Origin: Alphaproteobacteria bacterium
Lineage (GTDB): Bacteria; Pseudomonadota; Alphaproteobacteria; TMED109
Assembly: GCA_022824395.1 (NCBI GenBank)
Contig: JAJDZX010000037.1
Location: 114,985-178,984, forward strand
Direction: 5' to 3'
DNA: 64,000 bases
Shown here: piece after piece, positions 3,499-35,155 of the stretch
How positions within the stretch are numbered: position 1 is the first letter of the stretch
How the letters are laid out: each line of letters begins with the position of its first letter
Translations under genes and position numbers: made by a program
The notes under the pieces: model-generated
What the model was told of the DNA's origin: nothing
The model's input: the letters and a program-made list of their open reading frames with translations, nothing else
Databases searched by the model: none

Positions 3499-3812
3499 CG
3501 CCTCAGCCCGCCGGAGCCTGGCGGCGGCGGAGCCCCCGGGCGCTGGACGGGCAGCTCCGAGCCCGCACGGACCGCATTCGCAGCGCTCGTATCGACATGC
3601 CGTTGAGTCCTCCCGGAGGTCTTGCGCGGGCTGTCCCGCTCGGCGGGCCGACGGGGTCCGCGCGGGTTGCCGCGATCATGGTCGCGGGCCGCAGGCGCCG
3701 CCGCCCGATCATAGGGTCCCCGGGCCGGGTCCGGCCACGGAGGCCATCCGCGCTTTCCGATATCTTGCACAGTCATTCGCGGGGCGCGCCCGCGCCTGGC
3801 GGATCGCGGACC

Positions 3813-6800
3813 ATGGATGGTTCCCACGGCTGGCAGTTCTGGATTGACCGGGGCGGTACCTTCACCGACGTGGTGGCGCGCGCCCCGGACGGCACGCTGA
3901 CGGCGCGCAAGCTGCTTTCGAACAGCCCCGGGCACTATCGGGACGCCGCCGTGGCCGGCATCCGCGCCGTGCTCGGGCTCGCGACTTCGGAACCGATCCC
4001 CGCCAGCGCCGTCGCCTCTGTCCGCATGGGCACGACCGTGGCGACGAACGCACTCCTCGAACGCAAGGGAGAGCCCGTCCTGCTGTGTGTCACGCGGGGC
4101 TTCGGCGACGCCCTGCAGATCGGCACCCAGGCGCGACCCGACATCTTCGCCCGGCGCATCGAGCGGCCAGCGCTCCCCTACGCTGAGGTGATCGAAATCG
4201 ACGAACGCGTCAGCGCGGGCGGCGAGGTGCTGACGCCGCTCGATGCGGCCGCGTCCGAACGCGCGCTCCGGAATGCGGCCGCGGGTGGCTTGCAGTCGGT
4301 CGCCATCGTCCTGATGCACGGCTATCGCTACACCGATCATGAACGTGCGCTGGCCGACATCGCCCGCCGGGCCGGTTTTGTGCAGGTGTCGGTGTCCCAC
4401 GAAACCGTCCCGCTCCTGAAGCTTGTGAGCCGGGGCGGCACGACGGTGGCCGACGCCTATCTCTCGCCGGTCCTCAATCGCTACATCCGGGACCTCCAGC
4501 GCGAGCTCGAGGGGATTCCGCTGTCCTTCATGCAGTCCAACGGCGGGCTGGCCTCGGCGGCCCGCTTCCGGGGGAAGGACGCCGTCCTGTCGGGCCCGGC
4601 GGGCGGCGTGGTCGGGGCGGCGCGAACCGCCCAGGCCGCGGGCTTCACGCGGATCATCGGCTTCGACATGGGGGGCACGTCCACCGACGTCAGCTACTAC
4701 GGAGGCACCTTCGAACGGGTCGAGGAGGCGGAGGTCGCCGGCCTGCACCTCGCCACACCGTCGTTGCGGATCCAGACGGTCGCCGCCGGCGGCGGCTCGA
4801 TCCTCCATTTCGACGGTGAGCGCTTCACGGTGGGACCGGACAGCGCCGGCGCCGTGCCCGGTCCGGCCTGCTACCGCAATGGCGGACCGCTCACCATCAC
4901 GGACGCGAACCTGCTGCTCGGGCGCGTCCGGGCCGCCCACTTCCCGCACGTGTTCGGGCCCGATGCCGACCAGCCGCTCGACGCAGCGGTCACCCGCCGG
5001 GCCTTCGAGGCACTCGCCGCGAGGGCCGGCACGACCGCCGAGGACGTGGCCGAGGGTTTTCTCGACGTCGCCGTGGCAAACATGTCGGCCGCCATCAAGA
5101 AGATTTCCGTCCAGCGCGGGTACGATGTCACCGCGTGCGCACTGGCGGGCTTCGGCGCCGCGGCCGGCCAGCTCGCCTGTCGCGTGGCGGAAGACCTCGA
5201 CATGGACGCGGTCCTCCTGCATCCGCTCGCTGGCGTGCTGTCGGCCTACGGCATGGGCCTGGCGAACCTCTCGGCCATCCACCAGCAACCGGTCGGTCGC
5301 GAGCTCGATCCGGACGATCCGGGCCCGGCGGCCGCCGAGTTGGACGCCACCGAGCGCGCCGCGGCGGCGGCGATATCCGTGGACGATCCGGCCGCAAAGG
5401 TCGGGTTCACCAGGCGCCTCCGGGTCCGGTACGACGGAACCAACACGGCGCTTCTCGTCCCGGCCGGCCCGGGCGCCGCCGTACGGCGTGACTTCGAAAC
5501 GCAGCATCGGCGCCTCTTCGGCTTCCTGCATGAGGGGCGAGCCCTCCACATCGAGGCGGCCGAGGTCGAGGCCGCCACCGGCACCAGCCCCCTGCCGGTC
5601 TCCCGTCCGCCGGCCGGCCGGGCGCCGCCGGAGCCGGTGGAGCAGGTGGCCCTGCACGACCGCGGCGTCCGTCTGCAGGTCCCGCTGTACCGCCGGGCCG
5701 ATGTCGGGGCGGGCGTGACGCTGTCCGGCCCCGCGATCCTCGTCGAACCGACGGCCACCACCGTGATCGACCCCGGCTGGCGGGCCCGGATGCTGGACGA
5801 CGGACAACTTCTGCTCGAACGCGGGACCGGGCGGCAGCGCCGCCGGGCCGGACAGACCGAGGCCGACCCGGTGCTGCTCGAGGTGTTCAACGGACTGTTC
5901 ATGTCCGCCGCGGAGCAGATGGGATCGGTCCTGCGCAATACCGCGCACTCCGTCAACATCAAGGAGCGTCTCGACTTCTCGTGCGCGGTCTTCGACCGAG
6001 CGGGCGCTTTGGTCGCCAACGCACCCCATATCCCCGTGCATCTCGGATCCATGGGCGAGGCCGTGCTGGCGGTCCGCGAGGCCCGCGGCGGCGCGCTGCG
6101 GCCCGGGGACGCATTTCTGCACAACGCGCCCTACCGCGGCGGCACGCACCTGCCGGACTTGACGGTGGTCACGCCCGTCTTCGACCGATCCGGCGATCGC
6201 ATCCTGTTCTTCGTGGCCAGCCGGGCGCATCACGCCGACATCGGCGGCATCACCCCCGGCTCGATGCCGGCCACCAGTACGACCGTCCATGAAGAGGGCA
6301 TCCTGTTCGATGCGCTCCCGATTCTTTCCCAGGGCCGCCTTCTCGAGGACGAACTCCGCAGACACCTGGCGTCCGGACGCTGGCCCGCGCGCAACCCCAA
6401 CCAGAACCTGGCCGACGTGTCTGCCCAGCTCGCGGCAGGCGAACGCGGGATCCAGGAACTGCACGCGATGATCGAGGAGTTCGGCCTGGAAACGGTGCAT
6501 GCCTACATGGGGCACGTCCAGCGGCACGCCGAGGAACAGGTCCGGCGCCTGCTGTCCCGGCTGCAGCCAGGTTCGGCCGAGGTCGAGCTCGATGACGGCG
6601 CCGTCATTCGGGTCGAGATCACCGTGAACCGCGCCCAGCGATCGGCGGTCGTCGACTTTTCCGGCACATCGCAGCAACTCGCCAACAACTTCAATGCCCC
6701 GAGCGCGGTCGCCCGATCAGCCGTGCTGTACGTGCTGCGGGTCCTGATCGAGCGTCGGATTCCGCTCAACCACGGATGCCTGATCCCCGTCGAGATCCGC

Positions 6801-7391
6801 ATCCCGGAACGGTCGCTGCTCGCCCCGTGCCATCCGGCCGCCGTCGCCGCCGGCAACGTCGAAACCAGCCAGGCGATCGTCGATGTGCTGTTTGCCGCAC
6901 TGGGCGTGCAGGCGCACAGCTACGGCACGGTCAGCAACCTCACGTTTGGCACGGACGCTTTCGGATACTATGAGACCATCTGCGGAGGCGGGGGCGCGGG
7001 TCCTGACCATGCCGGTGCGGATGCCGTTCATTGCCACATGACCAATACCCGCCTGACCGATCCCGAAGTGCTCGAGAACCGCTTCCCGGTGCAGCTGGAT
7101 TCGTTCGCAGTGCGGCGCGGCAGCGGCGGGAACGGGCGCCACCGGGGCGGTGACGGCACCGTCCGTCGCCTGCGCTTTCTGGTCCCGATGACGGCTGGCA
7201 TCCTGTCCAACCGCCGGCGCGTGCCACCGCGTGGGCTCGCGGGCGGGGGAGACGGGGCACTCGGTGCCAATTCGCTGGAACGGCACGACGGCACGGTCGA
7301 GCGCCTGCCGGGGAGCGCCTCGCGGCAGGTCATGCCCGGAGACGTCCTGGTGATCGAGACGCCGGGCGGCGGGGGCTTCGGTCGTGCCTGA
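3813..7391 (+). CDS. Fused hydantoinase A/B family protein (5-oxoprolinase-like, about 1192 aa)
   Basis: ORF 3492..7391. The start is set at [22 protein letters not shown], the canonical HyuA N-terminus. The HyuB-type half (..[27 protein letters not shown]..) lies in the same frame. The upstream 107 codons are Arg/Pro-rich and overlap djlA. Confidence 0.9.
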
Positions 7392-10727: not shown

Positions 10728-11105
10728 GGAGGGCTCTGCTTCTGCCTGTGGCGCATCCGGTGCGCGCCCATTCTGCCCGATTTGGGCGTTCGCGCGCCAA
10801 CCCGCCAGCGCGGATCACCGAAACCGTCGAGGATGGCACCGCGAGAGGCCGTGCGCCCGGGCGAAGACCGTCAAGAAATGCGCCGCCGCCGCCGAAGCGA
10901 CGTTAGCGGGCGCGGCTCTCAGAAACCGTCACATTCCGCCGCAGACGCGGCGGCGACATTTGAAACTGCGCGGCGGCAGCGATACATTTCCGGCGTCAAT
11001 CGGCACGATCGACGCCGCCGAACAGTTGGGGCAGACCGGCCCGGCAACTCACTTCGCTGCGCGCACACACCTCGCGGGGGCGCCGATGCGGATGGCGCGA
11101 TCATC

Positions 11106-11726
11106 ATGACGAGTTCGGCCAAGCTGCGCCGTGGTCTCATCGTTCTCGGCAGCGCCGCGTTCGTCCTTGGCTGGTCCGGGGTTGGTGCCGCGGACGACCA
11201 CCCGGCAGTGCTCTCGCTCTCGAGCCTCGTGGCGGACGTCACCGCGCTGACCAAGGTCCCTGACGAACGCCAGGCGGACCGTACGGCGACCGTGCGCCGT
11301 ATCCTCCACGATTACTTCAATCTGCCCCTGATCGGACGGGCCGTTCTCGGTCGCCACTGGCGCTCGATCACCGATGCCCAGAAGGACGCCTACGAGCTCG
11401 CGTTCAGGGAGCACACGGTGCAATTGGTGGACGGCCAGCTGGAACGGATCTTGGGCGGCTCCCTCACGATTCTTCGGACCGTTCCCAGGAACGACCGTGA
11501 GACATTCGTGTACACGCGCTTCCTTCGCGACGGTGACGGGCCGCTGGAAGTGCGGTGGCGATTCCGAAACCGGAAGGAAGATGGCGCCCCCCGCATCGTC
11601 GACGTGACGGTCGAGGGCGTGAGCCTGTTCGCGACCAAGCGGCAGGAATTTGCCGCCATCGTGGAAGCGGAAGGGATCGACGGACTGGTCGCAGCGCTGC
11701 GGGCCATGAACGAGGCATCGTTCTGA
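11106..11726 (+). CDS. mlaC: MlaC/Ttg2D family periplasmic phospholipid-binding protein
   Basis: ORF 10782..11726. The start is set at MTSSAKLRRGLIVLGSAAF, a signal peptide. Contains ILHDYFNLPLIGRAVLGRHW..PRIVDVTVEGVSLFATKRQEFAAIV, typical of the toluene-tolerance Ttg2D family. Confidence 0.8.
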   Translation: MTSSAKLRRGLIVLGSAAFVLGWSGVGAADDHPAVLSLSSLVADVTALTKVPDERQADRTATVRRILHDYFNLPLIGRAVLGRHWRSITDAQKDAYELAFREHTVQLVDGQLERILGGSLTILRTVPRNDRETFVYTRFLRDGDGPLEVRWRFRNRKEDGAPRIVDVTVEGVSLFATKRQEFAAIVEAEGIDGLVAALRAMNEASF

Positions 11727-17738: not shown

Positions 17739-18539
17739 GTGCCCTATCCCACCGCGCTCATCAACGTGATGTCCGGGGCCGCCGAAAAAGCGGCGCGCCC
17801 GCTCCGCCGCGATTTCGGAGAAATCGAGAACCTTCAGGTCTCGCTCAAGGGGCCTGACAATTTCGTGACGTCCGCGGACCTGCGGACACAGGAAATCCTG
17901 CACCGCGAGCTCGCCCGCGCCCGGCCGGGCTACGGGTTTCTGATGGAGGAAGGTCTGGAAGAGGCCGGGGACGGCGAGCACCGGTGGATCGTCGATCCCG
18001 TCGACGGAACCCTGAACTTCCTGCGAGGGATCCCTCATTTCGCCATTTCGATCGCCCTCGAGCGCGCTGGCGCGATCGTCGGAGCGTTCGTCCTGGACCC
18101 CATCAAGCACGAAGCGTACTGGGCCGAGAAAGGACGCGGTGCCTACGTCAACGACCGTCGACTTCGCATCACGCCGCGCACGACCCTCGAGGGAGCCGTC
18201 GTCGCACTTGGTCTACCCCACCGGAGCCGCGGAGCCCACGACCTGCACCTCTCGCGTCAGCGCCGGATCATGCGCAAAGTGGCCGGCCTTCGCCGCTTCG
18301 GCGCCGCTGCACTCGATCTGTGCTACGTGGCTTCCGGACGGGTCGACGGCTATTGGGAGACCGGGCTCAACCCGTGGGACATCGCAGGCGGTATGCTGTG
18401 CGTGACCGAGGCAGGCGGTTCCGTCGTCGGGCTCCGGAAGAACACCTGTCCCCTGATCACGGGCGAAGTGATTGCCGGCACTCCCGACGTTGCGATAGCC
18501 CTGCAAGACTGCCTGATGGAGGCTGACCCACACGCTTGA
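17739..18539 (+). CDS. suhB: Inositol monophosphatase family protein (SuhB-like)
   Basis: 266 aa with a GTG start. Contains FVTSADLRTQEIL..EEG..WIVDPVDGTLNFLRGIPHFAISIAL..WDIAGG. Confidence 0.9.
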   Translation: MPYPTALINVMSGAAEKAARPLRRDFGEIENLQVSLKGPDNFVTSADLRTQEILHRELARARPGYGFLMEEGLEEAGDGEHRWIVDPVDGTLNFLRGIPHFAISIALERAGAIVGAFVLDPIKHEAYWAEKGRGAYVNDRRLRITPRTTLEGAVVALGLPHRSRGAHDLHLSRQRRIMRKVAGLRRFGAAALDLCYVASGRVDGYWETGLNPWDIAGGMLCVTEAGGSVVGLRKNTCPLITGEVIAGTPDVAIALQDCLMEADPHA

Positions 18540-18884
18540 CGATGACACCTGTCACGCCAGGGCCCGGGACCAGCCCACCTGCGGTAGAGCACTACGCGCG
18601 TGAGCCAGCCGCCGGGGCACGAAACAGCGACCACGACCGACGTGGCCCGGAGCCGGTTAACTGCCGTCAGGGGCCCCATTGCCCCCCGTCGCCCGACCCG
18701 GGGCAGCTTGTCTTCCTCGGCTTGATGTTTCCATGTTTTTCTGCCATTTCGTCTGTATCTGGTCGCGTCGGACATGATGGGCCGAACATGACCATGCCTG
18801 CCATCTGCAAGCGAGACTGCAGTCCGCCGGACGTGTCCTGGTCCACTTGCGGGTCGACGGCTGGCGGGTGGGCCGCGGCCCAGC

Positions 18885-20114
18885 TTGCGGGAATCAGCAG
18901 TGCATAGTCCTCATCGATTCCTGCTTCGCATGATTGCGTTCGTAGTGGTGTCGGGCGGACTCTCGTCGCTGCTGCTGTCGACGCTCAAAGAAGCCTTCAA
19001 CGCCAATCCGGCGCTGAACGGGCTCATCGCCGGCGTGCTGCTGATCGGGATCGCGTACTCGTTTCGTCAGGTGCTGGCGCTGGTTCCGGAAATCCGCTGG
19101 CTCGAACGCTACGCCTCCGGCATGAGTGTGAACGTCGGCAACTCGCGGCCGCCCAACTTGCTCGCCCCGATCGCCCGCACGTTCACCGACCAGACCAAGG
19201 CCTCTCGCCCGCTGATCTCCGCGCTCTCCATGCGCTCCCTGCTCGACGGCGTGAATTTCCGCCTCGACGAGACCCGCGACATTTCCCGCTACATGATCGG
19301 ACTCCTGATCTTCCTCGGGTTGCTGGGGACCTTCTGGGGGCTGCTCCAGACGGTAAGTTCGTTCGGCGCAGTCATCGGCAATCTCACGATCAGTGAGGGC
19401 GGTGACGTCGCATCGGTATTCGGATCGTTGAAAGCCGGCCTGACCGAGCCGCTCGCCGGAATGGGCACCGCCTTCAGTTCCTCGCTGTTCGGACTCGCGG
19501 GCTCCCTCGTGCTGGGCTTCCTGGACCTGCAGGTGTCTCAGGCGCAGAATCGTTTCTACCTCGACCTCGAAGAGTGGCTGGCCCGTCGGGCCCACGTCTC
19601 CGCGGGGGGGAGCGGCGAAATCGAGTCGGGACACACACCGGTTCCGGTGTACGTGCAGGCCCTGCTCGAGCAAACCGCCGAGAGCATCGATGAGCTTCAA
19701 AAAACTCTCGTCCGGGGCGAGAACGAGCGCCGCAATGTCAGCGAGTCGATGTCTGCCATCGCGACGCAGCTCTCCGCCATCGGCGATCAGCTGCGCAACG
19801 AGCAGTCCTCCGTCATCCGGCAAATCGAACGCATCGCCGACACCGGAAGCAGTCTTGACGAAAACTCCCTGGCGCATCTGCGCAGCGTCGATTCCAGCCT
19901 GAAGCGCCTGGTCGAAGAGAACGCCGCCGGGCAGGAGGCGTTCTTGCAGGGCGTGCGAAGCGAAATCAAACTGCTTGCCCGCACCCTGAGTGCCTCGGTG
20001 CCGGCAACCGAAACCGCGCGGGCAGCACCTAAGGCGACGCGACGTACCTCGACGACCGCCGCCAAATCCGAGGCGAAGCCGCGCGGGGCCCACCAGACCC
20101 GGTCCAAGCGCTGA
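18885..20114 (+). CDS. MotA/TolQ/ExbB proton-channel family protein with long C-terminal helical tail
   Basis: 409 aa. The channel core reads MIGLLIFLGLLGTFWGLLQTV and LAGMGTAFSSSLFGLAGSLVLGFL. About 190 aa of helical, charged sequence follow, ending in a basic tail KATRRTS..RSKR. Start alternatives are TTG 18885, GTG 18900 and ATG 18930. Confidence 0.8.
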   Translation: MRESAVHSPHRFLLRMIAFVVVSGGLSSLLLSTLKEAFNANPALNGLIAGVLLIGIAYSFRQVLALVPEIRWLERYASGMSVNVGNSRPPNLLAPIARTFTDQTKASRPLISALSMRSLLDGVNFRLDETRDISRYMIGLLIFLGLLGTFWGLLQTVSSFGAVIGNLTISEGGDVASVFGSLKAGLTEPLAGMGTAFSSSLFGLAGSLVLGFLDLQVSQAQNRFYLDLEEWLARRAHVSAGGSGEIESGHTPVPVYVQALLEQTAESIDELQKTLVRGENERRNVSESMSAIATQLSAIGDQLRNEQSSVIRQIERIADTGSSLDENSLAHLRSVDSSLKRLVEENAAGQEAFLQGVRSEIKLLARTLSASVPATETARAAPKATRRTSTTAAKSEAKPRGAHQTRSKR

Positions 20115-20123
20115 GCAAACGGC

Positions 20124-22775
20124 GTGCCCACGCGACGCCAATCGCCCAACATCTGGCCGGGCTTCGTCGATGGCATCTCGACGCTGTTGCTCGTCCTGGT
20201 CTTTCTCCTCGCGATCTTCGTGCTGTCGGAGTTCGTGCTGGGATTGCTCCTGAAGGGCCGGGACGAGGAGCTCCAGTCCCTGACCTCCCAGATGAATGCG
20301 CTGACCCGGCAGCTCGCCGAAGAGGAAACGCAGAACGCAGCGCTGACCCAGAACGTCCACGAACTGACCCAATCTCTCAGTGAATCAAAGACTCAGGTCA
20401 GTAACCTCCGAGCGGCGAACACGCGCCTGAACGATGACGTGCAGCTTCTCACCGAGAGCCTGCACGCGGCCGAAGCTCTTGGCGCGGATCTGGAGGCGAG
20501 AAACGAGCAACTGACTCTCAGGGTGCGTGAGCTTACGCAGTCGCTCGAAGCGGCCGAGACTCTCGCCGCGAATCGGCGGGTCCAGAACGATTCCCTTGCG
20601 GCGGACGTCCAGCGTCTCACGCAACTGCTCCAAGAAACCGAGACGCTCGCTACCGACCTGCAGGACCAGAACGAATCCCTTTCCGCGGACATCGAACAGC
20701 TCGCGCAGGCACTGGAGACGGCCCGCACCCGCGGCATCGAGTTGCAGGAGCAGAACGAAACGCTGGGCGCCGAAATCCAACAACTCTCGCAGGCCCTCGT
20801 CACGGCCCGACAACGCGGCGACGACCTCGAAACCCGGAACGAAGCCCTCGATGCCAACGTCCTGCAGCTCACCCAGGATCTGGCTGCCGCCCAGAGCCGC
20901 GGCGACGACCTCCAGACGCGAAACGAAACCCTCGACGCCGACGTCCGGCAGCTCGCCGACGAACTGGCGGCAGCCCGCACCCGCGGCGACGACCTGCAGG
21001 CCCAGAACGACACTCTGGAAGCCGACGTCCAGCAGCTGGCGCAGGCACTGATGTCTGCTGAGGCTCGTGGCCATGATCTTCAAGCCCAGAACGAGGCCCT
21101 GGTGGTTGACGCCCGGCAACTCTCGCAGGCCCTCGCCACGGCGGAGGCCCGTGGCGACACCCTTCAAGACGAGAACGAGACTCTCAACACCGACCTTCGG
21201 CAGTTGAGCGCAGCGCTAGAGGCGACCCGGAACCGCGGCAACGAACTGCAGGCACGAAACGAATCGCTGGGCGACGATGTCGAGCGCCTCGGGCTGGCGC
21301 TGGCGGCAGCGGAATCCCGAGGCGACGACCTGCAGAATGAGAACGAGTCCCTTCGCGCCAGCATTCGGCAGCTCACGCAGGCGCTGGCGGCGGCGGAAAC
21401 CCGCGGCGACGACCTGCAGACCGCGAACGAAACCCTCAACACCGACGTCCGGCAGTTGACGCAGGCACTGACAGCCGCGGAGACCCGCGGCGACGACCTG
21501 CAGACTGCGAACGAATCTCTTGACGCCGATATCCGGCGGCTGACGCAGGCACTGGCCGAGACGCGCGGTCGAGGCGACGAACTCGAGGCCCAGAACGATT
21601 CGCTCGCGACCGAGCTTCAAGAGTTGGCGCAGGCCCTCGCGACAGCGGAGGCCCGCAGCACCGAGTTGGAGGCGAGAAACGACTCGCTGAGCGCGGATTT
21701 CCAGAAGCTCACGCTTTCTCTGGAGGCCGCCGAGGCGCTGGGACTGAACCTTCAGTCGGAGAACGAGCAACTGACGACGGACCTCGAGCGGCTTTCTCGC
21801 GATCTGCAGGAAGCCGGGACGCTGGAAACCGGCCTCCAGGCCCGCAACCGGGACCTGTCTTCGGAAGTCGGGACGCTGCGTCGGTCGCTAGAAACGGCGC
21901 AGTTGCAAGAAATCGAACTGCGGGAGGAGATCGAGCGATTGCGCGGCAGTGCGCGGGACCTCCGTGCCGACGTCAGCCGGCTGCGGTCTTCGGAGCAGAA
22001 TCTAGCTGACCAGACCCGGGATCTCGCACTTGACAAGGACCAGCTCGAACAAAGGCTGGCCGAACTTGCCGCGGTGGCGGCGGCGGCCCGGACGGACCTC
22101 CTGCAATCGGAAGCGGATCTCGAGCAGGAACGGGCCCTGTCGGAGGCGGCAAGGGAGCAGGCGATCACGCTGAACCGCCAGCTCGCCGACGTCCGTGCCC
22201 GGCTCGACGAACTGGGACGGCTCCTCGATGCAGCCGAAGCCGACCGCGAGGCCAAGGAGATCCAGATTGTCGAGCTCGGCAAGCGGCTCAACGCTGCGCT
22301 CGCCACCCGGGTCAGCGAACTGGCACGCTATCGCTCGGAGTTCTTCGGACGCCTCCGGGAAATCCTCGGGAACCGCGCGGACGTCCGGATCGTGGGCGAT
22401 CGTTTCATCTTCCAGTCCGAAGTGCTGTTCGCGAGCGGTTCGGCGGAAATCGGTCCGAGCGGCCGCGACGAAATCACCGGAGTCTCTGCCGCCCTGAAGG
22501 CCCTGGCGGAGGATATCCCGGATGACTTGCCCTGGATCCTCCAAATCGAGGGCCATACCGATACCGACCCGATCGCCACCGAGCAGTTTCCTTCCAACTG
22601 GGAGCTGTCGGTAGCGCGGGCCACCGCGGTCGCCCGCATCCTCCTCGACAACGGCCTGCCCCCTGAGCGGCTCTCGATTGCCGGCTTCGGCGAGTTCCAG
22701 CCGATCGATCCTGGTACCAACCCCGCGGCACTTCGTCGTAACCGGCGGATCGAGCTCAAGCTTACGCGCCCGTAG
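20124..22775 (+). CDS. MotB/OmpA-family protein with Asp-containing N-terminal TM, about 650-aa repeat-built helical region and C-terminal peptidoglycan-binding domain
   Basis: 883 aa. The N-terminus NIWPGFVDGISTLLLVLVFLL resembles the MotB/TolR TM, with Asp16 (gat at 20169-20171). The C-terminus IEGHTDTDPI..NWELSVARATAVARIL..RRNRRIELKL is OmpA_C-like. It starts 9 nt after the MotA-like gene. Confidence 0.85.
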   Translation: MPTRRQSPNIWPGFVDGISTLLLVLVFLLAIFVLSEFVLGLLLKGRDEELQSLTSQMNALTRQLAEEETQNAALTQNVHELTQSLSESKTQVSNLRAANTRLNDDVQLLTESLHAAEALGADLEARNEQLTLRVRELTQSLEAAETLAANRRVQNDSLAADVQRLTQLLQETETLATDLQDQNESLSADIEQLAQALETARTRGIELQEQNETLGAEIQQLSQALVTARQRGDDLETRNEALDANVLQLTQDLAAAQSRGDDLQTRNETLDADVRQLADELAAARTRGDDLQAQNDTLEADVQQLAQALMSAEARGHDLQAQNEALVVDARQLSQALATAEARGDTLQDENETLNTDLRQLSAALEATRNRGNELQARNESLGDDVERLGLALAAAESRGDDLQNENESLRASIRQLTQALAAAETRGDDLQTANETLNTDVRQLTQALTAAETRGDDLQTANESLDADIRRLTQALAETRGRGDELEAQNDSLATELQELAQALATAEARSTELEARNDSLSADFQKLTLSLEAAEALGLNLQSENEQLTTDLERLSRDLQEAGTLETGLQARNRDLSSEVGTLRRSLETAQLQEIELREEIERLRGSARDLRADVSRLRSSEQNLADQTRDLALDKDQLEQRLAELAAVAAAARTDLLQSEADLEQERALSEAAREQAITLNRQLADVRARLDELGRLLDAAEADREAKEIQIVELGKRLNAALATRVSELARYRSEFFGRLREILGNRADVRIVGDRFIFQSEVLFASGSAEIGPSGRDEITGVSAALKALAEDIPDDLPWILQIEGHTDTDPIATEQFPSNWELSVARATAVARILLDNGLPPERLSIAGFGEFQPIDPGTNPAALRRNRRIELKLTRP
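20403..21914 (+). repeat. In-frame tandem array of about 18-20 copies of an 84-bp (28-codon) unit inside the MotB-like gene
   Basis: The consensus unit is roughly DLQxxNExLxxDVRQLTQALAAAExRGD. Neighbouring units around 21300-21560 are near-identical at the DNA level (..gcggaaacccgcggcgacgacctgcagaccgcgaacgaaaccctc.. against ..gcggagacccgcggcgacgacctgcagactgcgaacgaatctctt..). Degenerate copies extend to about 20320 and about 22000. Confidence 0.9.
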
Positions 22776-22961
22776 TCCCGGCGGCAGCCGAAGGTCGCGG
22801 CAGACATCTGATAGCATGGCCCCGGTGGCAACTCAGCGGTTGGCTTCGCCGCTGCGGCACGTTCCGTCCAGGGTTCCGATCACAGGAGCGTTTCCTGCGA
22901 ACCTGGCCTCGCCTGATTGCCGCCAGCCCCCCGCTTCGGTGAACTCCCGCGCAAGAATGCC

Positions 22962-24494
22962 ATGCAAGACGTCCTACGAACTCTCCGGCGAAAACGGCGC
23001 GATGCCCATCTGGGTGGCGGCACCGCGCGCATCGAGAAGCAACACGCCAAGGGAAAGCTGACCGCACGGGAACGTCTTTCCGCGCTGCTGGACCCTGGAT
23101 CCTTCGAGGAGTTTGACATGTTTGTCGAGCACCGGAGCGGTGATTTCGGCATGCAGCGGCAAACGATTCCGGGCGATGGCGTCGTGACCGGGTGGGGCGA
23201 GATCGGCGGGCGCCCGGTGTTCGTGTTCAGCCAGGATTTCACGGTGTTCGGCGGCTCGCTGTCGGAGGCCCATGCGGAAAAGATCTGCAAGGTGATGGAC
23301 CAGGCCATGAAGGTCGGTGCGCCCGTGATCGGCCTGAATGACTCCGGCGGGGCGCGCATCCAGGAAGGTGTCGCGTCACTTGGCGGCTACGCCGAGGTGT
23401 TTCAGCGAAACGTGCTGGCCTCGGGCGTGGTCCCGCAGATCTCCGTGATCATGGGTCCCTGCGCAGGTGGCGCCGTTTATTCGCCGGCCATGACCGACTT
23501 CATCTGCATGGTGCGCGACACCAGCTACATGTTCGTTACCGGCCCGGACGTCGTGAAGACCGTGATTCAGGAGGAGGTGTCGCACGAAGAGCTCGGTGGC
23601 GCCCGGACCCATACCGCCAAGTCCGGGGTCGCCGATCTCGCGTTTGACAACGACCTGGAAACCCTTTCACAGGTCCGGCGCCTGTTCCAGTTCCTGCCGC
23701 TTTCGAATCGTGATGGCGTGCCGGTCCGCGAGACGGCCGATCCCGCCGACCGCGACGAGCCGTCCCTCGATTCGCTGGTTCCGGTGCAACCCAACAAGCC
23801 GTACGACATGCGGGAGGTACTGGAAAAGGTCCTCGACGAGGGCGACTTTTTCGAAATCCAGCCTGACTTTGCCGGCAACATCCTGATTGGCTTCGGCCGC
23901 GTTGCGGGGAGAACCGTGGGCGTGGTGGCCAATCAGCCGATGGAGCTCGCGGGCTGTCTCGACATCGACTCCAGCCGGAAGGCTGCCCGCTTCGTGCGTT
24001 TCTGCGACTGCTTCGACATTCCGATCGTCACGTTCGTGGATGTCCCCGGCTTCCTGCCGGGAACCGACCAGGAGTACGGCGGTCTGATCAAGCACGGCGC
24101 CAAACTCCTGTTCGCCTATGCAGAGACCACTTCCCCCAAGATCACCGTGATTACCCGAAAGGCATACGGCGGTGCCTACGACGTCATGGCGTCGAAACAC
24201 CTCCGAGGCGATATCAACCTGGCCTGGCCGACTGCGGAGATCGCTGTCATGGGGCCGAAAGGTGCCGTCGAGATCATCTTCCGGGCGGACATGGGTGATC
24301 CCGACAAAATCCAGCAGCGCACGGACGAATATCGCCGCAAATTCGCAAATCCCTTTGTCGCAGCCAGTCGAGGGTACATTGACGACATCATCCTTCCGCG
24401 CGAAACGCGAACCCGAATCGCCCGCTCTCTGAAGATGCTCCGAGACAAGCGCCTTACGAACCCGCCGAAGAAGCACGGAAACATCCCGCTGTGA
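22962..24494 (+). CDS. pccB: Propionyl-CoA carboxylase beta chain (carboxyltransferase)
   Basis: ORF 22917..24494. The start is set at [36 protein letters not shown]. Contains [11 protein letters not shown] and [34 protein letters not shown]. Confidence 0.92.
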
Positions 24495-27640: not shown

Positions 27641-28012
27641 CGCTTCGTCCTCGGTGAGCCCCGTCGCGTCGGTGGGTCAGCAGCCGCGCCGCTGCCCTAG
27701 TTCTACCATGCGCGCTTCCGCCGGCGTTCAGCGACTTGCCACGGCTACAACACGGCCCCCATCCCGGGTCCCGGCCGGTCGCTCTCACAGGCCCGTCGGC
27801 CACGCCGGTTTCACCCCCCGGTGTGATGGGGCGGGGCCGGTGTTGGGGTGAGCGCGCGCGAGGGTGCCGGGGTGCCCAAGTCGTTGTCGCCACCCTAGTT
27901 TTCTTTTATCGTCCTGAAAGCCGGGACGAGTCCCTCGATGCGGCGGCTGCATTCTTCCGCCCGCCCGTCCACTATCTCGGTGATCGCCTCATACGATACG
28001 CAGGATTCAGCA

Positions 28013-28564
28013 ATGCATCGGCCTACCCAAATCCTTGTGGCCCTCGGCGTGGCGCTGGCGCTTGCCGCCTGCGGCAGCCCGTCCGAGCAAGAACCGACCG
28101 CCAGCCCGGCGGAAGTCGTTGATGGAACGAATCTCACCGACATTACCGAGCAGGACATCGATATCGAAACCGAAGAGATGGCCGGCGTCACCCAGTTGAC
28201 TCCTGAAGAGCAGGCTGAGGTCGATCTGATCGAGGCTGGCGATCGGGTCTACTTCGACTATGACAAGAGCGCCATTGGCGTCGAGGGAGAAGCAACGCTT
28301 CGTGCGCAGAGCGAGCTCCTGCTTGGCGCCCCGGCGCTGACGGTCACGATCGAGGGGCATTGCGACGAACGCGGTACCCGGGAATACAACATCGCGCTCG
28401 GCGAACGTCGCGCCGAGGCCGTCAAGACCTATCTCGTGTCGCTCGGGGTAGCGACCGACCGGATCTCGACGCTCTCCTATGGGAAGGAGCGCCCTGAAGT
28501 CGCCGGCCACAACGAAGACGCTTGGCGCCAGAACCGGGTCGCGATCACCGTCATCAATCCGTGA
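28013..28564 (+). CDS. pal: Peptidoglycan-associated lipoprotein Pal
   Basis: ORF 27938..28564. The start is set at MHRPTQILVALGVALALAAC, a lipobox. Contains VYFDYDKSAI..IEGHCDERGTREYNIALGERRAEAV..NRVAITV. Confidence 0.92.
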   Translation: MHRPTQILVALGVALALAACGSPSEQEPTASPAEVVDGTNLTDITEQDIDIETEEMAGVTQLTPEEQAEVDLIEAGDRVYFDYDKSAIGVEGEATLRAQSELLLGAPALTVTIEGHCDERGTREYNIALGERRAEAVKTYLVSLGVATDRISTLSYGKERPEVAGHNEDAWRQNRVAITVINP

Positions 28565-29364
28565 TCCGGCGTGCTGCAGCAGTCGTGACGGCGGGCCTCT
28601 GGGCCGCAGTACTCGCCGGTCCCGCCGTTTCCCAGGAGGCGGACGATGCGCGGCTCGAAGCACTGGAGACCAGGCTCGAGGCCCTGTCGCGCCAGGCCGA
28701 AGCGATTGCGAGCCAAGCGCGGCGCCTGCAGGAACTTGAAGATTCCCTGCGTGCCGTAACCGGGGCGATGCAGGAGAACCGTCATCTCCTTGATCAGATT
28801 CGCGGACAACTTCGACAGCTGGAAGAGGCGCGGGCGGAACCAAACGCAGCGCCGCCCCAGCAGGCGCCCGTGCAGGCCGCCGGCGCCGGCGAGGAGCCGG
28901 GAACCGGGGACACGGCGCCGGCGGAAGGACAGCCGGTACCAGTCGCGGAAGCGCCGCCAGTCCCAGTCACGCAGTTTGACGATGAGGAAGCCAGCTACCG
29001 GCGGGCGTACGAGTTGCTCGGCTTAGCGGACTATGCCGCGGCGGAGGTCGCTTTCCGTGAGTTCATCCGCAACTACCCCAACAGCACCCTGACGGACAAC
29101 GCGTACTACTGGCTTGGCGAAAGCCACTACGTGCGTGAACAGTACGAGCAAGCGGCAGCCGAGTTCGCCCGCGGGTTCCGAAGCGCCCCCGACAAGCAAA
29201 AGGCTCCCGACATTCTGCTCAAGCTGGGGCTCTCGCTGATGGCGCTGGGCAAGAACGACGACGCGTGTCAAGCCTTTCAACGCCTCGAGTCGGACTTCCC
29301 CGACGCTTCGAAGCGCACGCGTGACCGGGCTGTCCTCGGCCGTGAGCGCGCTGGCTGTAACTGA
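28561..29364 (+). CDS. cpoB: Tol-Pal system protein CpoB/YbgF (coiled coil plus TPR)
   Basis: ORF 28522..29364. The GTG at 28561 overlaps the pal stop (GTGA). It has a signal peptide, a coiled coil LEALETRLEALSRQ, and the C-terminal YRRAYELLGLADYAAAEVAFREFIRNYPNSTLTDNAYYWLGESHY. Confidence 0.88.
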   Translation: MIRRAAAVVTAGLWAAVLAGPAVSQEADDARLEALETRLEALSRQAEAIASQARRLQELEDSLRAVTGAMQENRHLLDQIRGQLRQLEEARAEPNAAPPQQAPVQAAGAGEEPGTGDTAPAEGQPVPVAEAPPVPVTQFDDEEASYRRAYELLGLADYAAAEVAFREFIRNYPNSTLTDNAYYWLGESHYVREQYEQAAAEFARGFRSAPDKQKAPDILLKLGLSLMALGKNDDACQAFQRLESDFPDASKRTRDRAVLGRERAGCN

Positions 29365-30706
29365 CCCCCGGACAGCGCGGCAAGCGATTGCGCCGGGGGA
29401 ATTCGAGCGCCTGGCGGCGGCGGCCGGGCTCTCCCCCGGCCGCTGTAGTTCTCTGGCGATCGCCGTCTCGGGCGGAGCCGACAGCATGGCACTGGCCCAC
29501 CTGGTGGCAGCGTGGGCGGGAAATCGGCGAGGGGCCATCACCGCACTGACCGTTGACCACGGCCTCCGCCGGGAATCCGCCGCCGAGGCCGGCACGGTCG
29601 CGACGCGGGCCAGAGGAATCGGCTTGCGGCATCAGACCCTGGTCTGGCATCACGGGGCCGTGACACGGCGCATTCAGGAAACGGCGCGCGCGGCCCGCTA
29701 CGAACTGATGGGCGCGTGGTGCCAGCGCGCCGGCGTCAGCGAGCTCCTGCTCGCGCATCATCTCGAAGACCAGGCCGAGACCTTCCTCATGCGCCTCGCC
29801 GCGGGCAGCGGTGTCCAGGGTCTGGGGTGCATGCGCGTGCGCACCCCGACGGAAACGGTCGAACTCGTGCGGCCGCTCCTCGGTGTCCCGAAGGCCCGCC
29901 TGCACGCGACCCTGGAACTTCGCGGAGGCACCTTCGTGGAGGATCCGTCCAACCGGGACATGCGCTACACCCGGAACCGCCTCCGCAACCTCATGGGCAA
30001 TTCCGCCCCGTTCCTGCCGGCAGCTGCCAGCCTAGCCCGCGCCGCCAAGAGTTTCCGCCGACTGGATGCTCTCGCCGAGCGCGCGACCGCCGGCCGTCTG
30101 CGCGACTCGGTGTTCGTCTCGCCGCTGGGGTTCATTGCCATCGGGCACGCTGCATTAATGGCCCTGCCCGACCCGCTGGCCCTGCGAACCGTGGCGGCGG
30201 TGGTGCAGGCGGTCACGGGCCGAGGCTATCCGCCCCGCACCCGGTCCCTTCGACGGATCCTGGATCGCATCAACAGCGACACCCTGGGCAGGTCCACGCT
30301 CGGGGGCGCCGTCCTCGCGCTGGACAGCGGCCGGCTCATCGCCACGCGGGAGCCGAGAGCCGTCTCCGGTCCGATCCGTCTGCAGTTCCCGAAGTCAGTG
30401 TGGGACAACCGCTTCCGGATCGCGACCGACATCCGGATCGGAAATCTGACGGTCGGTGCCCTTGGCCCGGACGACCTCCGCTGTCTCCCCGGGCCGTTAC
30501 CCGGTCCCGGCGCGTGCCGTGCCCATCTTGCTACACTGCCGGCCTTCCGTGATCTTGACGGATTGGCCGCCGTGCCCCACCTAAACTGGTGGCGGGACAA
30601 ACGTCTCCGCAACAGGATACAGGCCGTTTTCGACCCCCGATCCAGGCTGCTGGCCGCCGTGTCGTCGAGACCGGAGACCGGGTCCAGTCGGAACGCTGGC
30701 AATTGA
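29321..30706 (+). CDS. tilS: tRNA(Ile)-lysidine synthase
   Basis: 461 aa. The PP-loop reads [17 protein letters not shown], followed by [14 protein letters not shown]. The start is uncertain: the GTG at 29321 overlaps the cpoB 3' end. Confidence 0.85.
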
Positions 30707-30713
30707 GGACACC

Positions 30714-32630
<1,917 letters not shown>

Positions 32631-33856
32631 TGCACCTGGTCCGCGGCTGACGGAAGGCGCAACCCCCGTACTGCTCCGACCGCGGGATCTCTCGCACCTC
32701 GCCCGTCCCGCCGCGGGACGGCTGCCCTTGGCTGGCGGCCCCATGGGATTTGCCGCCGTCGACGAAGTCGTCCCCGGCCAGACGGCGCCGTCGCTGCGCC
32801 CGCTGCCCCTGTCCGCGCTAGACGGCGACCGGCATCGGGCACACCGCCACGCCCTCACGTCCGCGCGCGCTCCCTTTGCAGGTGTCGCGCTCGATCGCAC
32901 CCGCATCGTGGGCGTGGTCAACGTGACCCCGGACAGCTTCTCCGACGGTGGCCGGTACTTGACGCGAGAACGGGCGATCGCGCACGGACGCGACATGCTT
33001 GAGGCTGGCGCCGACATCCTCGATGTGGGCGGAGAATCTACCCGGCCGGGAGCTGCGCCGGTGCCGGTGGCGGACGAGATTCGGCGCGTGGTGCCCGTCA
33101 TCGAGGCGTTGCACCAACACGGCGCGGTGATTTCGGTCGACACGCGCAATCCCGAGACCATGCGGGCTGCCGCAGCCGCAGGCGCCGCCATCGTGAACGA
33201 CGTCACGGCCTTATCGCATTCACCCGAGAGCGCCCGAACCGTCGCACGCCTGGGGCTGGCCGTGGTGCTGATGCACATGCGCGGCACTCCGCCGACGATG
33301 CAGGTCCGGCCGCACTACAGGCACGCCCCGTGCGAGGTCTATGCGGACCTTTCCGGAGCGGTGCAGAGGGCCCGTGCAGCCGGTCTTTCGCCCGATCGGA
33401 TCGTCGTTGATCCAGGTCTCGGGTTCGGAAAGAACCAGGCCCATAACCTGGCGCTCCTGACCTGGCTGCCCATGTTCCACTGCCTGGGTCACGGTCTCAT
33501 GGTGGGGGCATCCCGCAAGTCCATCATCGGGCGCCTGGACTGCAATGCACCGGTCATGGACCGGCTCGGCGGTTCCCTGGCGATCGCGCTCCATGCCGCC
33601 GGCCAGGGCGCAAACCTGGTTCGCGTTCACGATGTCGCGGAAACCCGGCAAGCGCTGCGCGTGTGGGAGGCTCTCGGCCGATCGATGGCCGATGGGGCAC
33701 CGGATCTCGACGACCACCCTGGCCAGGTCTAGCGAACACCCCCGCCAGCCGGGTATCCGGCCACCGGAGGAACCGCGCTGCCCCAGGCACCGGCTACAAC
33801 CGGTGGCACATCGGGGCGATCGACTGTCTGCGGGCCAACCGGTCCCACCGCTCCTG

Positions 33857-35074
33857 TCACCCGGTGGTGCCGCGAGCGTCCGTTCTCCGTACCCGGCAGT
33901 CCGGGTCGTCGAGGAACTCGGGCCGGAGGTTCAGCCCGAGACCGGGCCCTTCCAGCGGCCGCAGCAATCCGTTCTCGAGCGGCGGCAGGTCGGTCACGAC
34001 CTCCTGAAACCAGCCATAGTAGAAGGCGCGGACCACTTCCTGCACCAGGGCATTGGTCGCGTTGATCACGTGGTGGACCGAAGCTGCGAAGATGACCGGC
34101 CCGGTGCAGTCGTGGGGCGCGACCGGGCGATGCCAGGCCTCGGCCATCGCGGCGATCTTGCGGGCCTCGGAAAGTCCGCCGACCCAGCCGATGTCGTACA
34201 TCACGTAGTCGCATGCGCCGAGTTCCAGGAGCTCGCGAAACTGGCCCCGGCTGCCGAGGGTCTCGCTGGCCGTGGTGGGAACCCGCGTGGAATCGCGAAA
34301 GTCCTTCAGACTCCGCAGACTGTCCATGCGGATCGGGTCCTCGAACCAGAACGGATTGCAGGGCTCCAGTGCCGCGGCGATCCGTTTGGCCTGCGGAAGG
34401 TCCCACATGGCGTGAAGTTCGACCATGACGTCCATGCTGTCGCCCACGGCGTCACGAATCTTCCGGAACGGCTCCACTGCGCGGTCCAAGTCTGCCGGCG
34501 AGATGTAATGGCCGCCGGAGGCTTCCGCCGCGTAGTCGAACGGCCAGATCTTCATCCCCGTGATGCCCATGGCCTGCAGGCTCTTGGCCAGTGCACCGGC
34601 ATCGGTCAGGAACGCCTGAAGGTCTTCGTACGGTCCCTCCGGCTGATCGCCGGGCAGGTTGAAGCTGTCCGTGGACTGCTTGGAGTGGGTCCGGACGTAC
34701 TGGTACCCAGCGCAGGTGTTGTAGACGCGGATGGCGTCGCGGCTTCGTCCGCCCAGGAGCTGGTAGACAGGCTGCCCGGTCACCTTTCCCCAGATGTCCC
34801 ACAGCGCCACATCCAATGCCGAATTGCCCCGGACCTCCGCTCCGGAGCCGGAGTGTCCGATGTAGGAGACCAGCCGTTTGCTGTGACGGTCGATCTGGAG
34901 CGGATCCTCCCCCAGCAGGAGCTTGGACGCATACGCGTGGATATGACCCTCGGAGGAACCCGTCCCGTAAAAGGTCTCGCCCAAGCCGGTGATTCCCTCG
35001 TCGGTGTGCACATGCACCCACAGGAGGTTGGGAAAACGGGCATGCGAGACGGTCTCGATCGCAGTAATTTTCAT
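33857..35074 (-). CDS. Enolase-superfamily enzyme (mandelate racemase/muconate lactonizing family, sugar-acid dehydratase-like)
   Basis: ORF 33857..35083. Contains MKITAIETV..LWVHVHTDEGITGLGETFYG..MKIWPFD..ELHAMWD..WFEDP. The start is the ATG at 35074 or the GTG at 35083. Confidence 0.85.
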   Translation of the reverse strand: MKITAIETVSHARFPNLLWVHVHTDEGITGLGETFYGTGSSEGHIHAYASKLLLGEDPLQIDRHSKRLVSYIGHSGSGAEVRGNSALDVALWDIWGKVTGQPVYQLLGGRSRDAIRVYNTCAGYQYVRTHSKQSTDSFNLPGDQPEGPYEDLQAFLTDAGALAKSLQAMGITGMKIWPFDYAAEASGGHYISPADLDRAVEPFRKIRDAVGDSMDVMVELHAMWDLPQAKRIAAALEPCNPFWFEDPIRMDSLRSLKDFRDSTRVPTTASETLGSRGQFRELLELGACDYVMYDIGWVGGLSEARKIAAMAEAWHRPVAPHDCTGPVIFAASVHHVINATNALVQEVVRAFYYGWFQEVVTDLPPLENGLLRPLEGPGLGLNLRPEFLDDPDCRVRRTDARGTTG

Positions 35075-35155
35075 TCCTGACACCCCCCGGGCTCCCGTTT
35101 ACGGGTCACGGCCCCATCTGTAGAAAGGCGCCACAGTAGCGTTTCGGGAAGGGCT

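Follow-up and report, generated by a model that had tools for sequence, protein, structure and literature searches.

We analyzed two adjacent genes in a 64,000-nucleotide stretch of genome from an alphaproteobacterium (GenBank assembly GCA_022824395.1, contig JAJDZX010000037.1, positions 114,985 to 178,984 of the forward strand), hereafter the window. The two co-oriented open reading frames (ORFs), here called A and B, lie at 18885-22775 as a preliminary description of the window had stated, and the peptides quoted there, LGLLGTFWGLLQTV and LAGMGTAFSSSLFGLAGSLVLGFL in A and WPGFVD16 in B, were all found. The window is ~65% G+C and contains many long spurious antisense ORFs; we accepted A and B as real genes because of thousands of homologues and their conserved pairing, rather than because of ORF length. 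Judged from sequence comparison, the pair represents a non-flagellar, chromosomally inherited family of stator-type proteins that is conserved across Alphaproteobacteria. Gene A comprises the following features (TM, transmembrane segment; AF2, AlphaFold2; HMM, hidden Markov model; pLDDT, predicted local distance difference test).

18900..20114, + strand: gene A, assigned from its ORF, its homologues, the PADLOC ZorA1 match and Foldseek.
18930..19085, + strand: TM1-TM2 hairpin, residues 11-62 of the 404-aa protein, from hydrophobic helices in the AF2 model and conservation.
19086..19304, + strand: basic cytoplasmic TM2-TM3 loop of ~73 aa, Arg/Lys-rich, with an invariant RLDE.R..SRY.
19305..19544, + strand: channel core, TM3 and TM4 with an acidic periplasmic loop between them, from invariant motifs and HMM matches.
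19545..19994, + strand: cytoplasmic tail, a variable Gly/Ser linker followed by two long helices, from AF2 and conservation.
19995..20111, + strand: variable, basic, disordered C-terminus, with pLDDT below 50 and no conservation in alignment A1.
18888..18902, + strand: Shine-Dalgarno-like GCGGGA and the GTG start codon of gene A, invariant in six clade sequences.

The ORF of A stands as first described, with a revised start: the TTG at 18885, which gave 409 aa, is replaced by the GTG at 18900 (MHSPHRFLLRM...), the most likely start, which gives 404 aa. We prefer this codon because homologue N-termini follow the pattern MxxPxRFLxRM (P0009, P0011 and P0014 open with MHSPHRFL) and because the GCGGGA...GTGCAT block is invariant in an alignment of the suhB-A intergenic region from the window and five clade relatives (six sequences). 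Many gene callers choose the ATG at 18930, which yields a 394-aa protein.

Hydrophobic segments and the positive-inside rule, as read from the sequence, give A four TMs with the N-terminus inside; a 4-TM topology has also been given for the orthologue from Komagataeibacter hansenii (PMC6570709). In the first hairpin, N26, L29, N30 and G40 are invariant (alignment A1, 394-aa numbering). TM3 carries GLLGT144FWG and TM4 carries GMGT190AFS193S194S195LFG, and the residues of GLLGTFWG and GMGTAFSSSLFG are invariant in 30/30 A sequences. This channel core is the stretch matched by the Pfam MotA_ExbB and ZorA HMMs, and T144, T190 and S193-S195 all sit in helices that both models cover. In solved motors, the polar ring around the B-subunit Asp is carried at these TM3 and TM4 positions of the A subunit (PMC11890865); by this analogy, T144, T190 and S193-S195 would correspond structurally to that ring. 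The two tail helices span residues 240-304 and 311-355 (AF2, 394-aa numbering). They contain the strongly conserved motifs VPVYVQALLEQTAES and RSEIKLLARTL, and P239, Y241, A244-E247, E345, I346, L349 and T352 are invariant in the tail, although the tail of the Sinorhizobium meliloti orthologue differs. An AF2 monomer of A, built on a 30-sequence alignment, is all-helical with a mean pLDDT of 63.

Gene B begins with a GTG at 20124, 9 nt past the stop codon of A (TGA) and in frame with A, and has the following features.

20124..22775, + strand: gene B, 883 aa, PRK09039 family, assigned from its NF006543 score, the junction sequence and adjacency to A.
20154..20252, + strand: TM segment W11-L43 with the membrane Asp16 (WPGFVD), from motif conservation.
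20256..22367, + strand: continuous heptad-repeat helix, residues 45-748, from a single heptad frame and AF2.
20328..21923, + strand: array of 19 in-register 28-residue (84-nt) repeats, residues 69-600, from Tandem Repeats Finder (TRF) and a register table.
21924..22382, + strand: distal rod, the pre-OmpA helices (...LNRQLADVRARL...LGKRLNAALATRVSELARYRSEFFGRLREILG), aligned and conserved in every short and long member.
22383..22766, + strand: OmpA/MotB-type peptidoglycan-binding domain, residues 754-881, with GHTD813 and R832, from Pfam, a PDB profile search and AF2.

At the junction, the TGA of A is followed by the codons GCA AAC GGC and then by the GTG of B (20112-20126), so that read-through of a single stop would fuse the two proteins; this potential for fusion is probably incidental.

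From end to end, B consists of a short basic N-terminus, the TM with Asp16, a conserved juxtamembrane helix (ALSGRDxAL...LALER), a variable middle rod, the distal rod and the OmpA domain. The N-terminal TM with its membrane Asp, anticipated in the preliminary description, recurs throughout the family: the motif WPG[FWY]VD was found in all 77 B proteins, with a lone WPAFVD variant (L068), and alignment A5, with Sinorhizobium and Komagataeibacter proteins among its sequences, shows no variation at W11, P12, V15 and D16. Residues 1-68 gave no match to MotB_plug or to any other MotB, ZorB, TolR or ExbD model in Pfam. The labels 'TolR-like' for this TM and 'TolA-like' for the spacer could not be substantiated; by sequence, the N-terminal module matches no solved B subunit. 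The C-terminal OmpA/MotB domain was recovered as predicted (Pfam PF00691, residues 768-874, E 4.5e-17). Its best PDB profile matches are MotS (9ljk, E 4e-26), MotB (6ysf) and PomB, over a range that extends to E 1e-17; H811, T812, D813, R832 and N873-E877 are invariant in the family, and AF2 models the domain (754-881) with a pLDDT of 80-94.

As a whole, B belongs to a catalogued family. The NCBIfam model NF006543 (PRK09039.1-2, 'peptidoglycan-binding protein') scores 384.3 bits against a cutoff of 305, with residues 588-881 of B as the best stretch, aligned to model positions 55-348; the distal rod is the main part matched and the repeat array is skipped. The long-form model NF006542 (627 positions) reaches 294 bits, below its cutoff of 388. 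Short members of the family match NF006543 in 20/20 cases, and one of them, L008, covers the whole model with 474 bits.

Between its ends, B is dominated by the rod. The spacer of about 650 aa of heptad-patterned helix that had been described does run in one unbroken frame from residue 45 to ~700; its structure is more specific than that wording suggested, being a tandem array of 28-residue units. TRF found the 84-nt period, and the 19 units align without one indel to the consensus xxNExLxxDVxQLTQALxxAExRGDDLQ. N3, L6, L13 and L17 are present in 19/19 units and L27 in 18/19, followed by A20 (15/19), V/I10 (14/19, hydrophobic in 18/19) and G24 (13/19). These residues fall on the heptad core, with N3, V/I10, L17 and G24 at a positions and L6, L13, A20 and L27 at d positions. 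A buried Asn that recurs at an a position is the classical mark of parallel, in-register two-stranded coiled coils such as GCN4-type zippers. By analogy, the recurring a-position Asn suggests that the rod is a parallel dimeric coiled coil, which fits a B dimer leaving a motor of 5:2 stoichiometry. At ~0.148 nm per residue, such a coiled coil would be ~104 nm long. AF2 predicts a helix from residue 13 to 748 with three low-confidence breaks (150-158, 314-324 and 452-457); we considered these as hairpins and rejected the idea, since their confidence is low and they look like fold-back artefacts of a monomer model. We likewise do not claim a myosin-like charge stagger, as a Fourier analysis of charge gave no dominant 28-residue term. 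Beyond the array, the distal rod carries the motifs LLNxQLAxLRxQL ... LGxRLNxALAxxVxELxxYRSEFFGRLRE.

The length of the rod varies widely. B proteins of the family range from 298 to 1254 aa (median 443), and in the shortest complete forms (346-349 aa) the rod has ~170 residues, or ~25 nm. Within the window clade, B is 967, 883, 911 or 771 aa long, so that relatives differ from the window protein by +84, +28 and -112 residues. The indels behind these differences measure exactly 84, 28, 168 and 28 residues; the sister lineage L007 has a short B. The repeats have diverged faster (52-93% identity) than the flanking domains (72-100%) within this clade. Other long forms have different periods, all multiples of seven (21/28/49 in L045, 35 in L044 and 14 in L016), which suggests independent expansions. 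The sequences thus indicate that the giant spacer is a clade-specific repeat expansion of the family rod, in which whole units are gained or lost while the heptad phase is kept. Rod length appears to be evolutionarily free as long as the phase is preserved, which argues against a fixed-length strut across the periplasm; instead, the rod may serve as a long leash or lie in the plane of the periplasm. In metagenomic collections, the closest relatives of the B C-terminus (P0271-P0273, 86-89% identity) start inside the 28-residue repeats. We considered these as short B variants and rejected that reading, because they are N-terminally truncated fragments; the array seems to break short-read assemblies or gene calls, and repeat counts from metagenome-assembled genomes (MAGs) need caution.

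A protein so dominated by a rod, of a length that varies freely between lineages, might be purely structural: a wall-anchored coiled-coil cable in the periplasm, possibly bundling laterally, with A as its anchor or chaperone and no ion-driven cycle. The fixed charge pattern within the 28-residue unit would suit this reading, as would the polar foci formed by fusion proteins in K. hansenii (PMC6570709). The invariance of the B Asp and the A Thr/Ser across very divergent members is, however, hard to explain without ion translocation, and the charge Fourier analysis did not produce the dominant 28-residue term; we consider a purely structural scaffold decidedly unlikely. On the reading that we prefer, the pair is a working motor, and its relatives bear on what kind of motor it would be.

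The family is large: A has >8,000 relatives in a 90%-clustered collection, and an exhaustive search returned 2,474 representative clusters (50% identity) at E ≤ 1e-3, 497 of them at E ≤ 1e-30. A Foldseek search of the AF2 model of A against the PDB placed ZorA (8vvn_D) first with E 4.9e-4, followed by ExbB (5sv0) and TolQ (9quq), at probability 1.0; flagellar MotA was not among the top 50 matches listed. The TolQ/ExbB/MotA-type core proposed for A is borne out in this respect, and on the evidence of the model A has the fold class of the A subunits of 5:2 motors. Among HMMs, the PADLOC ZorA1 model matched A with E 7.6e-13 and 46 bits over the core only, and ZorA1 and ZorA3 matched 30/30 members of the A family (best E 3.7e-16). 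ZorA models are the only NCBIfam or PADLOC families that match A, and the NCBIfam TolQ, ExbB and MotA models gave no match at E ≤ 0.1.

These matches raise the possibility that the pair is a Zorya-like anti-phage sensor, in which a ZorAB-type core detects perturbation of the envelope and signals through the A tail. Besides ZorA leading both the HMM and the fold comparisons, the PADLOC ZorB3 model matches B residues 716-878 with E 7.5e-22, and both systems combine a wall-binding B with a cytoplasmic helical A tail (PMC11890865). The scores, on the other hand, are low: those of the NCBIfam ZorA models are 13-16 bits, and ZorA scores as a whole (13-46 bits) fall far under the curated cutoffs of 250-750 bits. 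The A tail has ~115 helical residues versus several hundred in ZorA, and the suggested resemblance to a short ZorA tail comes down to weak coiled-coil matches (E 0.002-0.03). The genomic context, to which we now turn, also argues against a defence island.

In the window, pntAB, gloB, efp and suhB lie upstream of A, and pccB-like and pccA-like genes lie downstream of B, in agreement with the flanks first described. We compared 80 related loci from Rhodospirillales-like MAGs, Nitrospirillum, Niveispirillum, Azospirillum, Defluviicoccus, Elioraea and Nisaea. B follows A in 77/80 of them, with a gap of 3-80 nt in the family. Two of the three loci without B end at contig ends; in the third, L023 (PBKC01000031.1), a tblastn search downstream of 9101 found no B C-terminal domain despite ample sequence, which could be due to divergence, rearrangement or masked sequence. 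The genes efp-suhB are upstream of A in 56-59/80 loci, S. meliloti has the same order, suhB-A-B-ABC transporter, with LZK74_31000 and LZK74_30995 as the orthologues, and the conserved neighbours of the pair are efp, suhB, an OmpA-like gene, an ABC transporter and thiE. The pair is thus not the orphan, one-off architecture that it had seemed: it is widespread and syntenic across Alphaproteobacteria, including Sinorhizobium, and its B is a member of the catalogued PRK09039 family.

A tblastn search of A against 72,556 plasmid records returned five matches, from Sinorhizobium and Shinella, on replicons of 3.5-4.6 Mb that are effectively chromosomes; the A family was not found on true plasmids in that set or in 50,697 phage records. 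Synteny from Rhodospirillales to Rhizobiales argues for vertical inheritance, and together with the absence from true plasmids and phages it suggests an old, housekeeping-like locus rather than a mobile island. In addition, flagellar, Ton, gliding or Zorya effector genes border the pair neither in the window, as had been noted, nor in the 80 related loci. With ZorC-, ZorD-, ZorE-, ZorF- or ZorG-like genes missing next to the pair, and efp, suhB, thiE and an ABC transporter in their place, an anti-phage sensor seems very unlikely to us.

The same survey bears on the names in the source annotations, 'flagellar motor protein MotA' for A and 'chemotaxis protein MotB' for B, which imply a paralogue of the flagellar stator. 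Like MotA, A does have four TMs with the N-terminus inside, the nearest relatives of the B OmpA domain are those of MotS, MotB and PomB, and overexpression in K. hansenii increases colony spreading (PMC6570709). Yet the TM2-TM3 loop of ~73 aa is much shorter than the torque loop of flagellar MotA, Pfam detects no MotB plug, and neither an NCBIfam MotA model (E ≤ 0.1) nor the Foldseek top 50 links A to MotA. Flagellar clusters surround the pair in none of the 80 loci and not in S. meliloti. Moreover, Komagataeibacter has conserved members of the family but no flagellar genes (PMC6570709, PMC6315621). A role as flagellar stator paralogue is, in our judgment, extremely improbable, and the non-flagellar motor reading is the one that we carry forward.

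In 53/80 loci, and in K. hansenii as well, a third gene stands directly upstream of A on the same strand; its product carries a signal peptide, a Pro/Ala-rich linker and, at the C-terminus, an OmpA domain (PF00691, E 1.6e-11). Examples among the loci L006-L080, together with the K. hansenii contig, are as follows.

L041:6828-7823: upstream OmpA-like gene.
L082:3526-4377, - strand: upstream OmpA-like gene.

This protein may be a functional partner of the motor. No such gene was found in the window between 18540 and 18900 or in the window clade (L001-L005 and L007). Rod length has no simple link to its presence, as the gene accompanies both a 1254-aa B (L045) and a 636-aa B (L044) while the window clade is without it.

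The OmpA-like neighbour invites a comparison with Tol-Pal. The preliminary description had found no Tol genes adjacent, which holds for the immediate flanks; a cluster of pal, ybgF/cpoB, tilS and ftsH nevertheless starts 5.2 kb downstream, at 27938. This cluster extends over 27938-36520, with pal at 27938-28564 (TIGR02802, 132.6 bits, cutoff 125.35) followed by ybgF/cpoB, tilS, ftsH, folP and glmM. In many Alphaproteobacteria, tolQRAB directly precedes pal. Here, tolQ, tolR, tolA and tolB are not upstream of pal, no TolQ-, TolR-, ExbB- or ExbD-like motif was found elsewhere in the 64-kb window, and the Tol genes of the source genome appear to be split.

One could thus envisage the pair as a Tol-Pal-like tether or energizer of the envelope, in which ion flow modulates contacts between wall and outer membrane during growth or constriction, together with the upstream OmpA protein in most genomes. 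Such a tether would be a specific version of the physiological role that we propose below. The frequent secreted OmpA-domain neighbour fits it, as does pal-ybgF lying 5 kb downstream in the window clade, and overexpression in K. hansenii produces chains and filaments, as does tolQR overexpression in Escherichia coli (PMC6570709). Its difficulties are that the distal domain of B itself binds the wall instead of being a TolA/TonB-type C-terminal domain, with no TolA/TonB-like gene nearby; that neither the window nor its clade has the accessory OmpA gene; that the linkage to pal is limited to that clade; and that S. meliloti has an essential, canonical Tol-Pal system besides the pair (PMC7327166). 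On balance we regard this version as possible and rather unlikely. The broader reading, a motor with an envelope-related role, draws on experiments with orthologues.

The preliminary description knew of no described function for this architecture; orthologues have in fact been studied, as 'motA' and 'motB' of K. hansenii. Jacek et al. (2018, 2019) described a 'motA' of 348 aa with 4 TMs and a 'motB' of 321 aa with 1 TM and an OmpA domain (PMC6315621, PMC6570709). Peptides encoded by the published primers fit the family (MTRPTTY, TLYQAF and TNHSAS in A; MARRSR and EFRLTDR in B). A search of metagenome contigs with the published motA primer returned one contig, L082, on which suhB and the secreted OmpA-like gene accompany a 348-aa A and a 320-aa B carrying the primer-derived peptides. 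Its A matches the family profile with E 2.2e-91 and 47% identity, and its B scores 480.5 bits against NF006543. The K. hansenii 'motA/motB' genes belong to the A/B family. Their overexpression gives elongated or chained cells, approximately threefold more colony spreading and looser cellulose (PMC6570709, PMC6315621, PMC7347698), while mutants in which the genes are disrupted survive and produce denser cellulose (PMC6570709, PMC6315621, PMC7347698). GFP fusions localize to one pole in short cells and to both poles in long cells (PMC6570709).

Elsewhere, a literature search on 'PRK09039' returned nothing relevant, and searches on 5:2 motors and non-flagellar MotAB returned only a classification paper on FIT/GIT, in which the family is not singled out (PMC12505986). 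A paper on Tol-Pal and Rgs proteins of S. meliloti makes no mention of the pair.

Taken together, we think it fairly probable that A and B form a peptidoglycan-anchored, ion-driven stator-type complex of A5B2 composition, with the A tail as its output, a role in the envelope, at division or at the poles, and a giant rod that is specific to the window clade. This reading builds on the family membership, fold class, operon structure, synteny and repeat anatomy described above, on the identity of the K. hansenii orthologues, and on the conserved Asp, Thr/Ser and peptidoglycan-binding residues. By homology to MotAB, ZorAB, ExbBD and TolQR, five A subunits would surround two B subunits, an assumed stoichiometry. 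B would be a parallel dimer whose Asp16-bearing TM helices lie inside the ring of A subunits, to which TM3 and TM4 would contribute the invariant Thr and Ser residues (GLLGT and GTAFSSS). The C-terminal OmpA-type domain of B would bind peptidoglycan, and ion flow would then be expected to make A rotate about B, which is held by the wall. As output, the motor would use the strongly conserved helical tail that A has in the cytoplasm, acting on a putative partner. The physiological role is probably in the organization of the envelope, of cell division or of the pole, not in swimming or phage defence.

Several observations weigh against this reading. AF2 confidence for the A monomer is moderate (pLDDT 63), and the Pfam MotA_ExbB match to A (E 4.7e-4, 19-20 bits) stays below the gathering score of 22.9. 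When A was compared with all PDB chains, as a single sequence and as a 30-sequence profile, no motor was matched, and the tail produced just faint coiled-coil noise; nor did the B N-terminal module, as a 20-sequence profile, match any solved B subunit. A 100-nm, torsionally soft rod is a poor anchor for torque and is hard to square with the role of a classical stator. The K. hansenii phenotypes come mostly from overexpression and are indirect. Lastly, the CtrA box TTAA-N7-TTAA was not found within ≤300 nt upstream of A in the window or in any of the loci surveyed (80/80), and no other regulatory clue was found at the A-B locus.

A more daring version, which we consider unlikely, would make the family a relative of Zorya that is inherited vertically and has a housekeeping task: a 5:2 motor, anchored to the wall, that uses the A tail to report on or reshape the geometry of the envelope at poles and at sites of division. 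The hypervariable length of the rod would then set the reach of the motor. In the window clade, rods of ~100 nm, with an a-position Asn every 28 residues and the a-position Gly as a possible hinge, would lie flat within the periplasm and act as tethers or as cables that associate laterally. If this were true, the pair would amount to a periplasmic, cytoskeleton-like element that is driven or tensioned by ion flow.

As for expression of the pair, one further element of the suhB-A intergenic region is conserved.

18717..18777, + strand: conserved intergenic block with CTTGAT (18721-18726), a 17-nt spacer and CCATTT (18744-18749), from the alignment.

The block is kept in the window, in L001-L004 and partly in L005, while the surrounding spacer has diverged. 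We propose it as a candidate promoter of the A-B operon, on the basis of this conservation. A generic sigma-70 scan did not call the block, and generic sigma-70 and terminator scans of the locus were uninformative; Rfam gave zero matches within 18300-23100.

We also made a few observations on the records and on other genes of the window. The five 3.5-4.6-Mb 'plasmid' records carry ribosomal protein genes and purEK and look like mislabelled chromosomes; one of them is CP090106.1 (L081, 3.72 Mb), labelled 'Sinorhizobium meliloti strain Ak57 plasmid pSymB'. A contig labelled 'uncultured Mycobacteriaceae bacterium' (L048, CAZTHL010000009.1) has the efp-suhB-OmpA-A-B locus typical of Alphaproteobacteria and is probably mis-binned or mis-classified. 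Within the window, a 1299-aa ORF at 3492-7391 joins caprolactamase/hydantoinase-like alpha and beta parts in one chain, and a gene for an HpnM/MlaC-like phospholipid-binding protein lies at 10782-11726; neither is related to the pair.

Flagella, Ton uptake, Tol-Pal constriction, gliding, type 9 secretion and Zorya defence all run on ion-driven 5:2 motors, and each motor family that has newly been understood showed a new route for transmitting energy across the envelope. For the pair described here, a 5:2-type motor with a wall-binding B was already known in principle, the B family was catalogued, and orthologues had been handled experimentally. What is new is that the family, mis-annotated until now, had never been recognized or analyzed as a distinct, non-flagellar motor class. 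Its combination of features, in which a ZorA/ExbB-like core goes with a cytoplasmic tail and with a MotB-type anchor borne on a coiled coil of freely varying length, is unlike that of any characterized member. The family is large, syntenic and non-flagellar, and it is present in the tractable genera Sinorhizobium, Azospirillum and Komagataeibacter. The window clade in addition offers a natural series of rod lengths in 28-residue steps, which could be used to test whether length matters for function, and the function of the pair could explain the effects on cell shape and cellulose texture that are exploited in Komagataeibacter engineering.

Compared with systems already described, the nearest are MotA and MotB of K. 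hansenii, which belong to the same family and share the local synteny, a 4-TM A and a single-TM B with an OmpA domain. They differ in that the K. hansenii B is 320 aa with a short rod and has the upstream OmpA-like gene, whereas the 883-aa B of the window has 19 repeats and no such gene beside the pair. What has been published on them is phenotypic, covering cell length, spreading, cellulose texture and polar foci, rather than mechanistic. The NCBIfam family PRK09039 (NF006542-NF006546) includes the window B, which scores above the NF006543 cutoff, under a name that comes without a mechanism or an A partner.

Among characterized motors, Zorya ZorAB (PDB 8vvn, 8qyd; PMC11890865) supplies the closest described relative of A, ZorA, by both HMM and fold. 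ZorAB and the pair have in common a B that binds the wall and bears an Asp in the membrane, as well as a helical A tail in the cytoplasm; the polar Thr/Ser ring of ZorA has a putative counterpart in A. Unlike ZorAB, the pair has no effector genes and sits in a housekeeping, syntenic and vertically inherited context. Its A tail is several times shorter than that of ZorA and follows a flexible Gly/Ser linker, A has a predicted 4 TMs with the N-terminus inside, and B has a rod of 170 to >1,000 residues whereas ZorB has none.

The flagellar stators MotAB, PomAB and MotPS resemble the pair in their 4-TM A, single-TM B with an Asp, MotB-type OmpA domain and adjacent genes. In contrast to them, the pair is not linked to flagellar genes, gives no match to a MotA HMM and lacks both a torque-generating loop and a detectable plug; a tail follows at the C-terminus of A, and where the B of these stators has a short flexible linker, that of the pair has a long coiled coil. 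TolQR-TolA-Pal and ExbBD-TonB, finally, have a similar A core fold and likewise join a motor in the inner membrane, a presumed one in the pair, to a periplasm-spanning element, and overexpression of the pair gives division-like phenotypes. No TolA or TonB gene was adjacent in the loci surveyed, and B does not have a periplasmic domain of the TolR/ExbD type, its place being taken by the coiled coil and the OmpA domain. Whereas Tol and Ton use a separate TolA or TonB and outer-membrane partners, the long periplasmic element of the pair is within B itself and has a wall-binding end.

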